From: Candidatus Saccharimonadia bacterium
GTDB taxonomy: Bacteria > Patescibacteriota > Saccharimonadia > UBA4664
Direction: 5' to 3'
Assembly: GCA_035544015.1 (NCBI GenBank)
Contig: DATKIP010000012.1
Span: 29,049-93,048, forward strand
Length of the DNA: 64,000 nt
Made by a program: the position numbers and the translations under genes. Below are positions 4,653 through 30,966 of this stretch, one piece after another. The notes beneath the pieces were generated by a model that ran no database searches, was not told the DNA's origin, and was given only the letters and a program-made list of their open reading frames with translations. Positions within the stretch are counted from its first letter, which is position 1, and every line of letters starts with the position of its first letter.

Positions 4653-4762
4653 ATCCGGCACCGTGCTACTTTCCCCCAGAGGAGTATCATCGCCGCAGCG
4701 GGTCTTAACTTTGGTGTTCGAGATGGGAACCAGTGTATCCCCCGCGCTAAAAGCACCGGTCT
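4653..4762 (-). rRNA. rrf: 5S ribosomal RNA
   Basis: The reverse complement reads ccggtgcttttagcgcggggg...ttcccatctcgaacaccaaagttaagacccgctgcggcgatgatactcctctgggggaaagtagcacggtgccgg. This matches the 5S consensus (CCCAUGCCGAACUCAGAAGUGAAAC region) and helix I closes as CCGGUGC/GUGCCGG. It lies about 160 nt downstream of the 23S 3-prime end. Confidence 0.85.
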
Positions 4763-4924
4763 GGCATACGTGCGAGGCCATAGGCGTGCACTGGATGCCG
4801 GATCGGCGCTCTTACGGGAGCGCCAGATGTGTCGAAGATGAATGGATTTTGCCTACTAGAGGCTACAAACTGCTAGTCAAACATTTACTCTCTCGTTAGC
4901 CAGAATTGCGTAAGGCTAAAGAGA

Positions 4925-7900
4925 AAGTGTAAAAAAGTCAATCGACCGATTAGTACACCTCGGCTAAACGTATTGCTACGCGTACACCTAGTGCCTATCA
5001 ACCAGATAGTCTTTCTGGGGTCTAATGGGGAAATCTCATCTTGAGGTAAGTTTCGCGCTTATATGCTTTCAGCGCTTATCTTGACCGAACTTAGCTACTC
5101 GACAATGCCCTTGGCAGAACAATCGATACACCAGAGGTTCGTTCACTCCGGTCCTCTCGTACTAGGAGCCAATCCTCTCAAATTTCCTTACGCCCACACC
5201 AGATAGGGACCGAACTGTCTCACGACGTTCTGAACCCAGCTCGCGTACCCCTTTAATTGGCGAACAGCCAAACCCTTGGGAGGTGCTTCCCCCCCAGGAT
5301 GGGACGAGCCGACATCGAGGTGCCAAACAGCGCCGTCTATGTGAACTATTGGGCGCTATAAGCCTGTTATCCCCAGGGTAGCTTTTATCCGTTGAGCGCT
5401 GCAGATTCCACATTCTAGATTTGCAGCGGATCACTAACTCCTACTTTCGTACCTGCTCGGCTTGTAGGCCTCACAGTCAAGCTGGCTTATGCGTTTGCAC
5501 TATCGATACGATTTCCATCCGTACCTAGCCAACCTTTGAACGCCTCCGTTACTCTTTGGGAGGCAACCGCCCCAGTTAAACTACCCACCAGACACTGTTC
5601 CAGTACCGGAATTTGTGCGTGAGGAAGTCCAACAAGACAAGTAGTTGCTTGTAAAACATGAGAACGTTAGTTCTCGTTATAGATAAAAGATCATCCATAT
5701 TTCGCTTTTACTAGCATTCGCATTTGTCTTGCCAGCCTCCCGCGCAAATTGCGGTACTGGTTAGGACAAAATTGAAGCAAGGGTGGTATTTCACATTGCG
5801 GCTCCACCAGAGCTAGCGCTCTGGCTTCAAAGCCTCCCACCTATACTACACAAGCTTCAACCTGGCCCAATGCCAAGTTGTAGTAAAGCTCCATGGGGTC
5901 TTTCCGTCTTGGTGCGGGTAAACGGCATCTTTACCGCTATTGCAATTTCACCGAGTCCCTCGTTGAGACAGTGCCCATATCATTACGCCATTCGTGCGGG
6001 TCGGAACTTACCCGACAAGGAATTTCGCTACCTTAGGACAGTTATAGTTACTGCCGCCGTTTACTGGGGCTTCATTTCAAAGCTTGCACCTCTCCACTTA
6101 ACCTTCCAGCACCGGGCAGGCGTCAGTCCGTATACATCATCTTTCGATTTAGCACAGACCTGTGTTTTTGATAAACAGTTGCATGGGCTCTTTTGCTGCG
6201 GCCTCCCGAAGGAGGCAGACCTTATCCCGAAGTTACGGTCGCTGTATTGCCGAGTTCCTTAACGAGGGTTCTCTCGTACACCTTGGTCTACTCGACCCGA
6301 GCACCGGAGTCGGTTTGCGGTACGGGCGGCTATGCCTATTAACTCCACTACTTTTCCTGTCAGCTTGGCTCACCAGAATCACCCTGTAAGGGGCTTTCAT
6401 TCGCGTCTCACCTGTATTGCTACAGACTACCTGCTTAGACGGATATAGCCGAAAATCCGCTCTGATTACCATGCCGCGTCATGTGGAGGAACAACATCGC
6501 CGGTACGGGAATATCAACCCGTTGTCCATCGCCTACGCTATTCGCCTCGGCTTAGGCCCGACTAACCCTGGGACGATAATCGTGGCCCAGGAAACCTTGC
6601 TCTTACGGTGGCAGGGATTCTCACCCTGCTTAAAGTTACTTATTCCAGCATTCTCACTTCCCCGCGCTCCACCAGCCTTTCCAAGCTGACTTCACTGCCC
6701 GAGGAACGCTCCTCTACCACGTACACCTTGCGGTGCACATTCGCATCTTCGGCGCTACGCTTAGCCCCGGTATATTTTCCGCGCAGAATCACAATTGACC
6801 AGTGAGCTGTTACGCACTCTTTAAATGCATGGCTGCTTCTAAGCCAACATCCTGGTTGTTTATGCGTCTCCACATCGTTTCCCACTTAGCGTAGACTTGG
6901 GGGCCTTAGATGGCGATCTGGGCTGTTTCCCTTTTGAGCGACGAGCTTAGCCCCGCCGTTCTGACTGCCTATGTAATCTCTCCCGGTATTCGCAGTTTGC
7001 CAAGGATCAGTATCGTTGCCGACCATTACCTAAACAGAGCTCTACCCCCAGGAGGTAGTTATAGACGCTAGCCCTAAAGCTATTTCGAGGAGAACCAGCT
7101 ATCTCCGAGTTCGATTGGAATTTCTCCGCTAACCACAGGTCATCCAAGAGTTTTGCAACACTCCCTGGTTCGGTCCTCCACGTAGTTTTACCTACGCTTC
7201 AACCTGCCCATGGTTAGGTCACCCGGTTTCGGGTCTAATCCTATGTACTATGTCGCCCTATTAAGGCTCGCTTTCACTACGGCTCCGTCATTTGACTTAA
7301 CCTAACGCACACAAAATTAACTCGCTGGATCGTTCTACAAAAAGCACGCCGTCACCACGCTCATCACTAACGACGAGCGCAGCATATTGCGCAGATATTG
7401 TAGCTGCCGCCACGCACCTACCTGGAACTTGGTAGGACTCGTGCGGCTGTCTGCGAACATGCCACTCTCACTTTCAGTGAAGAGCGCAGCTCCGACTCAT
7501 TGTAGGCACATGATTTCAGGTTCTATTTCACTCCCCTTCCGGGGTTCTTTTCGCCTTTCCCTCACGGTACTTGTTCGCTATCGATCGTAAAGTATATTTA
7601 GCCTTGGAAGGTGGTCCTTCCGGATTCGGCCAGGGTTTCACGTGTCCCGGCTTACTCGAGAAAACAGATATAAGGGCTAAAGATTTTCGCGTACGGGGCT
7701 TTCACCCTCTTTGGCCAAGCATTCCGGCTTGTTCCACTAACCTTTAACTTTCTAACCTTACCGGCGCGTAGACAGCGCCTCCGTCGCAATAAGGACCGCT
7801 CTAGGTAAACCTAAAACGCTCCTTATTGGTCATCTGTAATCTCACAACCCCTATTTAACATTCGCCTGTCAGCTTATTCGCAAGTAAACTTGCGAAAGTT

Positions 7901-8215
7901 AAATAAGTTTTGGCTCTTCCCATTTCGCTCGCCGCTACTCAGGGAATTGAGGTTTCTCTCTATTCCTGCTGCTACTTAGATGTTTCAGTTCACAGCGTAC
8001 CCTCCTACTACCCTATAGATTCAGGTAATGGTAACCGCGTATAACCACGGCTGGGTTGCCCCATTCGGAAATCCCCGGATCAAAGCTTGATTGACAGCTC
8101 CCCGAGGCTTATCGCAGCCTTCTACGTCCTTCATCGGTACTTTACGTCAAGGCATCCGTCATGTGCCCTTAAGTAACTTTCTTACGTTGGCCCATGATAG
8201 CTTAAGGAACTACCA
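4925..8215 (-). rRNA. rrl: 23S ribosomal RNA, about 3.3 kb and longer than the typical 2.9 kb
   Basis: Reverse-complement matches to conserved 23S blocks include the 5-prime end AAGGGCACATGACGGATGCCTTG (E. coli AAGCGTACACGGTGGATGCCCTGGC), GTTTGGCACCTCGATGTCGGCTC, the sarcin-ricin loop AGTACGAGAGGACCGG, and GGTGGGTAGTTTAACTGGGGCGG. Ends are approximate (+/-20 nt). Confidence 0.95.
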
Positions 8216-8485
8216 CGGAACCATGTTTGACTAGCAGTTTGCAGCTGCTAGTCGCCATTTCTAGCCACCTCGGCGGTGGTTTCGAAAATGGTGAAATTGT
8301 TTGTATGATCTCACGTCTTGCGACGCTCGACCTTACCCATTCATCTTCGGTTTTCAAAAAAACTACTCCGCGAAACCCTTGCGATTCTGCGGAGCCCACA
8401 TGATAAAAGACAGTTGATAGTTCTAGTGGGTTTCTCCGCTTAAACCTAACTGTCTACTCATATGAGCCCTCGAAGTAACTCAATC

Positions 8486-29286: not shown

Positions 29287-29314
29287 TATTGCCTCCGCAG
29301 CCATACAGTCAACG

Positions 29315-29357
29315 CAAACAGCCAGCTCAAAACGAGCTGGCTGTTTGTTTCAACTTG
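29315..29357 (+). terminator. Intrinsic terminator after the ABC permease (perfect 14-bp stem plus T-tract)
   Basis: caaacagccagctc-aaaac-gagctggctgtttg followed by tttcaacttg. It also lies about 160 nt beyond the 16S 3-prime end on the other strand. Confidence 0.55.
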
Positions 29358-29509
29358 AAACCTTAATCGTGCAGTACAATGACCGACCTAGAAGTACCGC
29401 AGCTAACAATTCGCAATCACATCCTCCATTGCTGAAGGCAGATCAAACGAGGCAGTTAGTCTGGCCAGAGGTCGAGCCTCTGGGGCTCATTGCTGAGCCG
29501 TTTCTCCCT

Positions 29510-30966
29510 AGAAAGGAGGTGATCCATCCGCACCTTCCGGTACGGATACCTTGTTACGACTTCATCCCAGTTACCACCCCCGCCTTAGGGCCTAGAAAAT
29601 AGGCACTTCGGGCGTTGGCGACTTCCGTGACGTGACGGGCGGTGTGTACAAGACCCGGGAACGTATTCAACGTGGTGTGCTGACCCACGTTTACTAGCAA
29701 ATCCGACTTCATGGAGGCGAGTTGCAGCCTCCAATCCGAACTGAGACCAGTTTTGATGCGATTTGCTCCACCTCGCGGTTTCGCTGCGCGTTGTACTGGC
29801 CATTGTATGACGTGAGTAGCCCCAGGCGTAAGGGCCATGCCGACCTGACGTCATCCCCACCTTCCTCCCGGTTGGCCCGGGCAGTCTCGCATGAAAAATA
29901 CAACATACGATAAGGGTTGCGCTCGTTGCGGGACTTAACCCAACATCTCACGACACGAGCTGACGACGGCCATGCAGCACCTGTCACTAGGCTCCCGAAG
30001 GCACTCCACCGTTTCCGGCGGATTCCTAGGATGTCAAGCCTGGGTAAGGTTCTACGCGTAGCGTCATATTAAACCACATCATCCTCTGCTTGTGCGGGTC
30101 CCCGTCAATTCCTTTGAGTTTTAGCCTTGCGGCCGTACTTCCCAGGCGGCATACTTATCGCGTTAGCTGCGTCTCACAGGGGGTCGATACCCCATAAGAC
30201 TAGTATGCATCGTTTACGGCGTGGACTACCAGGGTATCTAATCCTGTTCGCTCCCCACGCTTTCGTACCTCAGTGTCAGAAGAAGCCCAGCAAGCTGCCT
30301 TCGCCATTGGTGTTCCTTGTAATATCTACGCATTTCACTGCTACACTACAAATTCCACTTGCCTCTGCTTCCCTCTAGCATGCCAGTATGCGATGCATCG
30401 ATAGGGTTGAGCCCCACGATTTAACATCACACTTAACACGCCACCTACGCACGCTTTACGCCCAGTGATTCCGGATAACGCTTGGACCCTACGTATTACC
30501 GCGGCTGCTGGCACGTAGTTAGCCGGTCCTTATTCATATGGTACCGTCATAATCTTCCCATATAAAAGCAGTTTACAACCCGAAGGCCGTCATCCTGCAC
30601 GCGGCGTTGCTCCATCAGACTTTCGTCCATTGTGGAAGATTCCTTACTGCTGCCTCCCGTAGGAGTCTGGGCCGTATCTCAGTCCCAGTGTGGCTGGTCA
30701 ACCTCTCGATCCAGCTACCCATCGTCGCCTTGGTAGTCCATTACACTACCAACAAGCTAATGGGACGCAGGCCCCTCCCTAAGCGCATTACTGCTTTACC
30801 CTTGCGGGATTATGCGGTATTAGCCACCCTTTCGGGCAGTTATTCCCCACTTAGGGGTAGGTACCAACGTGTTACTCACCCGTCCGCCACTAAGCCCGAA
30901 GGCTTCGTTCGACTTGCATGTATTAGGCACGCCGCCAGCGTTCATCCTGAGCCAGGATCAAACTCT
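29510..30966 (-). rRNA. rrs: 16S ribosomal RNA (about 1457 nt)
   Basis: Reverse complement begins AGAGTTTGATCCTGGCTCAG and ends GGATCACCTCCTTTCT. Contains GTGCCAGCAGCCGCGGTAATAC, CCGTCAATTCCTTTGAGTTT-complement, and TGTACACACCGCCCGTC. Confidence 0.95.

Follow-up and report, generated by a model that had tools for sequence, protein, structure and literature searches.

Can ribosomal RNA (rRNA) genes that stand some 21 kb apart, with the transfer RNA (tRNA) pair of their spacer turned round between them, be a genuine arrangement, and if so, how could such a locus have arisen and be expressed? The question is raised by a stretch of 64,000 nt from a Candidatus Saccharimonadia bacterium (GCA_035544015.1, contig DATKIP010000012.1, positions 29,049 to 93,048), which was analyzed over its whole length and is called the window here. 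The split layout, i.e., a 16S gene, an inverted tRNA-Ile/tRNA-Ala pair and a 23S-5S unit, is real, and the observation is confirmed. We consider it probable that these are three separate transcription units, produced by inversion of the tRNA pair within an ordinary operon and later accretion of genes around it.

The rRNA genes were located with Rfam covariance models, the tRNA genes with ARAGORN and Rfam, and the protein families with Pfam; all coordinates refer to the whole window. Its source is supported as a soil-type member of Saccharimonadia (TM7) within the Candidate Phyla Radiation (CPR) by sequence comparison: relatives of its GyrA at 82-91% identity bear the names Saccharimonadia, Saccharimonadales or Saccharimonas, its FtsX-like permease and GyrA have identical NCBI proteins named 'Candidatus Saccharimonadia bacterium', and the best loci for its C39 peptidase are Saccharimonadia metagenome-assembled genomes. 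A planctomycete source, suggested at first by GC content and unlinked genes, was discarded in view of these protein names and because the 16S lacks the probe targets of planctomycetes and Verrucomicrobia.

Layout of the rRNA locus

The RNA genes are as follows.

29512-30973, minus strand: 16S rRNA gene (Rfam RF00177, 1533 bits, model positions 1-1533)
16035-16111, plus strand: tRNA-Ile(GAT) (ARAGORN; Rfam 76.5 bits)
16262-16337, plus strand: tRNA-Ala(TGC) (ARAGORN; Rfam 67.4 bits)
4929-8183, minus strand: 23S rRNA gene, 3255 nt long, expanded by insertions that form hairpins (Rfam RF02541, 2653 bits, model 1-2925)
4653-4760, minus strand: 5S rRNA gene (Rfam RF00001, 75.2 bits)

The three rRNA genes share the minus strand and cover their full Rfam models with high scores, and both tRNA genes are detected between 16S and 23S on the plus strand. 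Measured from the Rfam gene ends, the 16S-23S gap is 21,328 bp (29512 - 8183 = 21,329) and holds 18 open reading frames (ORFs) in an ORF-level count, 15 on the plus and three on the minus strand. With its opposite-strand tRNA genes and these intervening ORFs, the locus is not the contiguous, one-strand canonical rrn operon with a spacer below about 1.5 kb. An earlier sequence-only reading had placed 16S 21 kb from 23S-5S, in agreement with the Rfam gap. Its gene coordinates fall within a few bases of the Rfam and ARAGORN ends, save for the 5' end of 23S (8215 against 8183 by Rfam), and its 'about 15' intervening genes on both strands were right as to the strands, the count being 18 ORFs instead. 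Its view of the Ile/Ala pair as an independent plus-strand module between the rRNA units has held as well, both from ARAGORN (16035-16337) and from compact relatives.

The GC skew and the tetranucleotide usage are unbroken across the junctions of the rRNA units. Logan contig L001 (7.7 kb), which comes from an independent short-read assembly, matches window positions 21967-29652 at 99.73%; it crosses the junction, running from the FtsX-like gene past the terminator and stopping inside the 3' end of 16S. ARAGORN also called an 89-nt tRNA-Ala(GGC) at 14566-14654 (minus strand) inside a major facilitator superfamily (MFS) transporter ORF, which is without Rfam support and probably a false positive.

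Related loci

Metagenome contigs scanned with the tRNA-Ile core yielded 120 loci, which were classified by BLAST and ARAGORN. The 16S gene stood upstream on the same strand in 58 of them, 19 of which also had 23S downstream on that strand, and was convergent with the tRNA in ten, the tRNAs thus being inverted relative to 16S. No rRNA lay within the available sequence of 49 loci, some of them free-standing Ile/Ala pairs with 3-13 kb of flank, and the remainder had 23S alone on the same strand, either downstream (two loci) or upstream (one). The rRNA-free and convergent loci together indicate that free-standing or inverted spacer tRNA pairs are common among contigs sharing the tRNA of the window. 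Further relatives (L130, L132/L133, L136, L137 and L141) were found via homologues of a 93-aa membrane-protein gene of the spacer; contigs with such a homologue are often only 0.5-6.5 kb long, because short-read assemblies break at this locus. The most informative loci are these.

L042: 16S(+), tRNA-Ala(-), tRNA-Ile(-), 23S(+); 16S-23S spacer 1998 nt
L107: tRNA pair convergent with 16S, 0.9 kb away; 16S 94.7% identical to the window
L132/L133: 16S-23S gap 2986 nt; 16S 97.4% and 23S 96.1% identity
L130 (829-kb contig): gap 3751 nt, with an IS1595 transposase between 23S and the tRNA pair; 16S 85.0% and 23S 87.2% identity
L137: pair convergent with 16S, tRNA-Ala to 16S 2.4 kb; 16S 96.7% identity
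L141: 16S not reached within at least 3.3 kb past tRNA-Ala
L136: no tRNAs over at least 6.4 kb, counted from the 16S 3' end
L135: 16S 97.9% identical to the window
32881-33717 of the window, minus strand: DUF212 gene, conserved upstream anchor of the rRNA locus (Pfam)

The sequence-only reading had proposed a comparison of synteny with related genomes; it was run, and the relatives show the same topology with shorter gaps. Wherever tRNA pair and rRNA stand on one contig among the relatives with the 93-aa gene, the pair is oriented against the rRNA strand, and five contig groups that stem from other samples (L042, L107, L130, L132/L133 and L137) have the inverted pair. Anchors are shared within the gap: a gene for a metallo-beta-lactamase (MBL)-fold protein upstream of tRNA-Ile in the window, L130 and L132, and the 93-aa gene on the side between tRNA-Ala and 16S. 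The additional genes around these anchors differ in every genome examined, and the window carries the largest spacer load among the genomes compared. L132/L133 also have a NUDIX gene beside 16S.

A homologue of DUF212 stands upstream of 16S on the same strand in L066, L130, L133 and L135, and also in the more distant L005, L043 and L095 (16S about 81% identical), where a canonical same-strand 16S-tRNA-tRNA-23S-5S operon follows it. The claim of an ancestral operon broken by inversion or insertion events is thus supported by compact inverted relatives together with canonical DUF212-16S-tRNAs-23S-5S operons in distant ones, and the comparative data equally support 16S and 23S-5S as separate units.

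Predicted signals of the three units

Each unit has a candidate promoter of the sigma-70 type and a predicted terminator of its own, and both large rRNA genes have processing stems.

31300-31272, minus strand: candidate 16S promoter TTGACA-17 nt-TAAGAT, starting 14 nt past the stop codon of the upstream gene
31186-31204, minus strand: GC-rich 16S leader hairpin, downstream of the conserved promoter
31134-31169, minus strand: 5' arm of the 16S processing stem (inverted-repeat search; kept in five genomes)
30997-31039, minus strand: conserved 16S leader element AAAAAUUUUUUUGAAUGAGCGCCAAGCUCAAACGAACCCAAG, which contains a U7GAA motif of boxA-like appearance (flank alignment)
29350-29384, minus strand: 3' arm of the 16S processing stem (inverted repeat I4)
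29316-29346, minus strand: terminator hairpin of the 16S unit, read from the sequence; two-way, also facing the convergent FtsX-like gene
15974-16002, plus strand: candidate tRNA-unit promoter TTGCTC-17 nt-TTAAAT, with TGC right before the -10 box (conservation)
16134-16255, plus strand: hairpin of about 120 nt in the 150-nt Ile-Ala spacer (inverted repeat I3)
16351-16376, plus strand: terminator hairpin after tRNA-Ala, AAAAACGGCU-loop-AGCCGUUUUU, read from the sequence
8514-8486, minus strand: candidate 23S-5S promoter TTGACC-17 nt-TAATCT (conservation)
8349-8394, minus strand: 23S leader hairpin (8394-8366) followed by UUUUUUUGAAAACC (8362-8349), a candidate boxB/boxA-like element
8223-8257, minus strand: 5' arm of the 23S processing stem (inverted repeat I2; kept in L042, L132 and L130)
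4850-4884, minus strand: 3' arm of the 23S processing stem, located between 23S and 5S (inverted repeat I2; kept in L132 and L130)
4649-4620 (13-bp stem) and 4609-4590, minus strand: two tandem intrinsic terminators after 5S

The 16S unit would run from its promoter at 31300-31272 through a leader of about 290 nt and the 16S gene to the terminator at 29346-29316, with a leader-trailer stem of about 33 bp. The TTGACAC of this promoter and its TAnnnT -10 box are kept in five genomes (window, L135, L137, L133 and L130), and the leader element, whose function is putative, is nearly invariant in the same five. For the stem, the inverted-repeat match of 29358-29382 with 31136-31160 extends to a 33-bp duplex (-49.8 kcal/mol); the duplex stays at about -50 kcal/mol in the window, L133 and L130, and in L133 a C-G pair is replaced by U-A, a compensatory change. 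A terminator lies about 165 nt past the 16S 3' end in every relative examined, and a hairpin with a U-run but of unrelated sequence stands at the position of the window's terminator in L133/L132, L130, L107 and L042. That 16S should have its own promoter and its own downstream hairpins, as the sequence-only reading had it, therefore finds support in a promoter footprint conserved in five genomes and in a terminator position shared by relatives. The hairpin that it had placed at 31174-31204, as the terminator of the previous gene ahead of the promoter, does exist; sitting downstream of the conserved promoter, it belongs to the 16S leader. Another hairpin, unlike it in sequence, takes its position in L135 and L137; none is present there in L133 and L130.

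Transcription of the tRNA unit would start on the opposite strand at 15974-16002 and pass through tRNA-Ile, the 120-nt hairpin and tRNA-Ala to the terminator at 16351-16376. Here TGCTTAAAT is invariant, with a TTGnnn box 17 nt upstream, in five genomes (window, L132, L130, L107 and L042). A hairpin with a T-run could be read directly at the place of the tRNA-Ala terminator in L107 and L042; the matching stretch of L132 and of L130 is known from alignment only. The spacer hairpin between the two tRNA genes folds at -65.4 kcal/mol (z = -5.7), and its homologue in the distant relative L130 (8843-8960) keeps 33 pairs, eight of them by compensatory change, with none broken. Closer relatives are without it, L132, L107 and L042 by alignment and L137 and L141 as judged by spacer length (24-48 nt). 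It has no Rfam match, and no further copies were found in the window or the 120 loci. It could be a processing helix kept by selection, or else a palindromic insertion that has persisted.

The third unit would lead from the promoter at 8514-8486 through a leader of about 300 nt, 23S and 5S to the two tandem terminators, with a stem of about 35 bp around 23S. The -35 box of the promoter and a TAnnnT -10 box are kept in four genomes (window, L132, L130 and L042), while the flanks diverge; the leader hairpin and the UUUUUUUGAAAACC that follows it are nearly invariant in L132 and L130. The 35-nt stem arms are 86% complementary, with a 19-bp perfect core read from the sequence. The sequence-only reading had given a terminator after 5S at 4613-4647; it is confirmed by the 13-bp stem, a second hairpin (4609-4590) can now be added to it, and the structure of the first hairpin is kept in L132 and L130, where its stem sequences differ.

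Long leader-trailer stems around rRNA genes are classical RNase III substrates. Both 16S and 23S are bracketed in this manner by complementary leader and trailer arms of their own, and terminator-like hairpins follow all three units, with hairpins of unrelated sequence at the same places in relatives after 16S and tRNA-Ala. Folding of the whole leader/trailer duplexes was uninformative, shuffled sequences scoring almost equally, and discrete arms were used instead. Both rRNA leaders also contain a conserved hairpin followed by UUUUUUUGAA (U7GAA), which is kept in close relatives and in the 16S leader lies downstream of the stem arm. We take this pair to resemble a boxB-boxA antitermination element, of the kind bound by NusB/NusE, and regard the likeness as a lead only. 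Promoter activity, termination, RNase III cleavage and a balancing of 16S and 23S by separate regulation are what we infer from these predicted signals.

Two hairpin-forming insertions distinguish the 23S gene when it is mapped against that of E. coli. One (7357-7489; about 130 nt, folding z = -6.9) falls at E. coli 540-551 and is common only to L132, the closest relative, among the 23S genes compared; the other (5616-5752; 137 nt, z = -6.1) falls at about E. coli 2207. Intervening sequences (IVS) at helix 25 of 23S are known in Salmonella, Leptospira, Campylobacter and others, and the first insertion resembles them as a hairpin insertion of about 130 nt that forms an extended hairpin at helix 25 (E. 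coli ~540-550). We take 540-551 to be the helix 25 hot spot for IVS and ~2207 not to be a classical IVS site. Both insertions may be excised as IVS, leaving a fragmented 23S. About 150 nt of extra 23S sequence (window 7745-7907, E. coli 272-287) also occurs in every Saccharimonadia-like 23S gene of the comparison (L005, L013, L093 and L042) and is therefore an expansion segment of the whole clade. The 23S gene of L130 (2470-6736) is 4267 nt long and holds a group I intron (Rfam RF00028) with an ORF for a LAGLIDADG homing endonuclease.

Genes within and upstream of the locus

The DNA between the units falls into two blocks, separated by the tRNA unit.

8496-15773: inserted block A, five ORFs: DUF4082 (+), FAD/BBE oxidase (+), MBL-fold hydrolase (-), MFS transporter (+), 135-aa ORF (-) (Pfam)
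16410-29286: inserted block B, 13 ORFs (Pfam)
22538-22819: 93-aa membrane-protein gene within block B; relatives keep its homologue close to the 16S 3' end

Of the ORFs of block A, the MBL-fold gene alone stands between 23S and tRNA-Ile in L130 and L132, and this interval measures just 340 nt in L042. The genes of block B with a Pfam match include an EamA transporter, a GNAT acetyltransferase and, at 23677-29286, a co-oriented cluster of a C39-like peptidase, an N-acetylmuramoyl-L-alanine amidase, an ABC ATPase and the FtsX-like permease. This cluster sits elsewhere, in unrelated contexts, in other Saccharimonadia, and the C39-peptidase loci L002-L004 contain neither rRNA nor an Ile/Ala pair. 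Between tRNA-Ala and 16S, a homologue of the 93-aa gene occurs in L107, L042, L130, L132/L133, L137 and L141; that of L136 stands near the 16S 3' end. Relative to these genomes, the additions of the window occupy at least four intervals (23S-MBL, MBL-tRNA-Ile, tRNA-Ala-93-aa gene and GNAT-16S), which are set apart by anchors common to the relatives.

The tetranucleotide usage of the inserted DNA correlates with that of the rest of the window at about 0.90-0.92. Next to the tRNA terminator, the stretch 16400-18700 has a GC content of 0.52 against about 0.60, a near-zero GC skew and a tetranucleotide correlation of 0.75; this sub-block, whose four ORFs are small or hypothetical, may have arrived more recently. 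Neither an integrase or transposase nor flanking direct or att-like repeats were found in the window by Pfam and repeat search, and the repeat search revealed no convincing flanking repeats marking the boundary of an inversion or island. The annotated ATG of the DUF4082 ORF (8496, plus strand) overlaps the conserved 23S promoter on the opposite strand; a promoter-like site at 8580-8608 (plus strand) suggests that its real start is further downstream.

Upstream of 16S, the window shares with its relatives two surface proteins, one on either side of DUF212, and at a greater distance gyrA and gyrB. In the window gyrB and gyrA (39224-43895, minus strand) lie 8 kb upstream of 16S, and beyond them an ORF of 1872 aa extends over 46140-51758 (minus strand), whose homologue in L134 has DUF8128 and a faint match to the Pfam family T4SS-DNA_transf. 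The synteny of gyrB, gyrA and this ORF is kept in contigs of relatives (380-490 kb). The genes between gyrA and 16S (31315-38980) are very fast evolving.

Proposed origin of the split locus

According to the history that we propose, the rRNA locus is the single one of the genome, and an ancestral 16S-tRNA-Ile-tRNA-Ala-23S-5S operon would have become three autonomous transcription units. The canonical operon would have stood at the DUF212 site, and in an ancestor of the clade the Ile-Ala segment would have been inverted in place, since reverting it restores the order of Ile, then Ala. The three units would have acquired separate signals, at times which cannot be read from the sequence, and genes would have been gained repeatedly on both sides of the tRNA pair once read-through of the spacer was no longer needed. 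The tRNA inversion thus appears to be old and, like the three candidate promoters, ancestral to the clade, and only the expansion of about 20 kb to be particular to the lineage of the window.

How firmly do the data favor inversion and accretion over other explanations? The rRNA genes are classic points of assembly breaks and mis-joins, and L001 does stop inside the 16S 3' end, as would fit a chimera formed across conserved rRNA sequence in a genome that truly has a normal operon. However, the flanks of 16S pair with each other and those of 23S do likewise, so that both sides of each gene belong together, and a terminator follows directly after each unit. As L001 moreover reproduces the junction of FtsX-like gene, terminator and 16S, and the inverted pair recurs in five contig groups that stem from other samples, a mis-join is very unlikely, and with GC skew and tetranucleotide usage continuous at the junctions we give it next to no credence. 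Nor is it easy to view the genes as one long transcript from the 16S promoter that yields both 16S and 23S-5S. Such read-through would suit their common strand and their order, and rRNA antitermination systems are able to pass terminators, but it would have to overcome the terminator found shortly after 16S in every relative examined, and 15 of the 18 intervening ORFs as well as the tRNA unit would be antisense to it. The promoter conserved about 300 nt upstream of 23S would also be left unexplained by it. Three conserved promoter footprints and three terminators argue against a single transcript, which we hold to be very improbable.

The copies in the window might instead be spare or decaying ones, with a working canonical operon elsewhere in the genome; the analyzed sequence is 64 kb of that genome, and genomes mixing linked and unlinked rRNA genes have been reported (10.1101/705046). 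Decay is at odds with three rRNAs that span their full models at high scores and with stems, promoters and terminators conserved in relatives, and the locus occupies the ancestral site beside DUF212. No extra copies would be expected either, as one rRNA operon is reported for a cultured oral Saccharibacterium (PMC8830319), and we judge this explanation improbable. The insertion of one recent genomic island or mobile element into a compact locus is perhaps easier to imagine, as the C39-peptidase/amidase/ABC/FtsX cluster forms one co-oriented block found elsewhere in other Saccharimonadia, an IS1595 transposase sits in the same spacer of L130, and a low-GC sub-block lies at 16.4-18.7 kb. It is nevertheless unlikely: the additions are spread over at least four separate intervals between shared anchors, the window lacks a detectable integrase, transposase or direct or att-like repeat, composition is native over most of the blocks, and the tRNA inversion is older than any such event.

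Several points weigh against inversion followed by accretion, or at least against parts of it. That the window was expanded here, rather than the relatives having lost genes, is a matter of parsimony over about ten contigs without a resolved phylogeny, and the claim of a single locus draws on a window of 64 kb. The promoters, terminators and processing sites are predictions, and the boxA-like motif, whose assignment is by resemblance, is not kept in the 23S leader of L042. The rRNA of L130 is divergent, yet its flanking proteins resemble those of relatives with 98% 16S identity, which makes the branching order of the clade uncertain: in L135 (16S 97.9%, GyrA 92% identical) DUF212 reaches only 68% and the surface proteins 56-64% identity, and L130, at 85% in 16S, shows values equal to or above these. 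Transfer of rRNA genes was considered for this mismatch and not adopted, the flanking proteins being fast evolving even at a GyrA identity of 92%, and no GyrA from the 828,923-bp contig of L130 being among the 120 best GyrA matches, all of which have at least 76% identity.

Beyond the inversion and accretion history, we also entertain a rather improbable idea, namely that the former spacer is a site of gene capture and exchange, where homologous recombination in the bracketing rRNA genes would swap cargo between strains. Two long, conserved and co-oriented rRNA genes bracket the spacer, and its content varies in every genome examined, even at a 16S identity of at least 95%. If true, recombination in the rRNA flanks would explain the fast turnover of the spacer and possibly the mismatch between rRNA and flanking-protein divergence in L130.

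Comparison with known systems and significance

Unlinked rRNA genes have been reported as common in Patescibacteria/CPR (Brewer et al., 10.1101/705046), and a study of 34 circularised CPR genomes detected them in 27 (Lui et al. 2021, PMC8172020). As Saccharimonadia belong to the CPR, where such genes are documented, the arrangement is less unusual than the sequence-only reading implied. By its 21,328 bp the window counts as unlinked in the sense of Brewer et al. (10.1101/705046), and with 15 of 18 ORFs and the tRNA unit on the plus strand it belongs to class D, 'unlinked by distance', of Lui et al. (PMC8172020). It shares with the CPR cases of both studies a 16S gene more than 1.5 kb from 23S-5S and opposite-strand genes in between, and the small, symbiont-like genomes of those hosts are a further likeness to its organism. 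Two circularised Saccharimonadia were scored as 'operonic', with two tRNAs, one to three ORFs and spacers of 1456 and 1959 bp (PMC8172020); in contrast to these, the clade of the window has an inverted tRNA pair and three conserved candidate promoters, and the gap of the window is 21.3 kb.

Borrelia, too, is known to transcribe a spacer tRNA in opposition to its rRNAs (PMC4370689): its locus (rrs - tRNA-Ala ... tRNA-Ile - tandem rrl-rrf) likewise has a reversed tRNA between 16S and 23S-5S. Only tRNA-Ile is described as reversed there and 23S-5S is duplicated, whereas the window has both tRNAs inverted as a unit and a larger gap. A WWE3 (CPR) fosmid reported as early as 2008 (PMC2702496) has protein genes, including a NUDIX hydrolase, between its 16S, tRNA-Ile, tRNA-Ala and 23S-5S genes; the gap there is about 4.5 kb, and the genes are tabulated without strands. 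The canonical rrn operon, as in E. coli and in locus L125, matches the window in its gene set, in the order along the rRNA strand and in separate 16S and 23S stems, but has a spacer of about 0.45 kb instead of 21.3 kb and lacks the inverted tRNAs, the three promoters and the three sets of terminators. In the literature compared, we found no description of a tRNA unit that is inverted throughout a clade and has a conserved promoter of its own, nor of a graded series of gaps from 2 to 21 kb. These are refinements of the known unlinked layout and not a new category.

The locus would show a stepwise dismantling of an operon, in which the tRNAs were inverted first, the units came to have their own promoters, and the spacer was filled from 2 to 21 kb among close relatives. 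In practical terms, long-amplicon methods that span 16S, the internal transcribed spacer and 23S will miss this clade. How a cell with a single locus balances the output of 16S and 23S from separate promoters is a question which the locus raises anew, although it is not a new one, and for testing this balance it supplies defined, conserved candidate promoter and leader elements.

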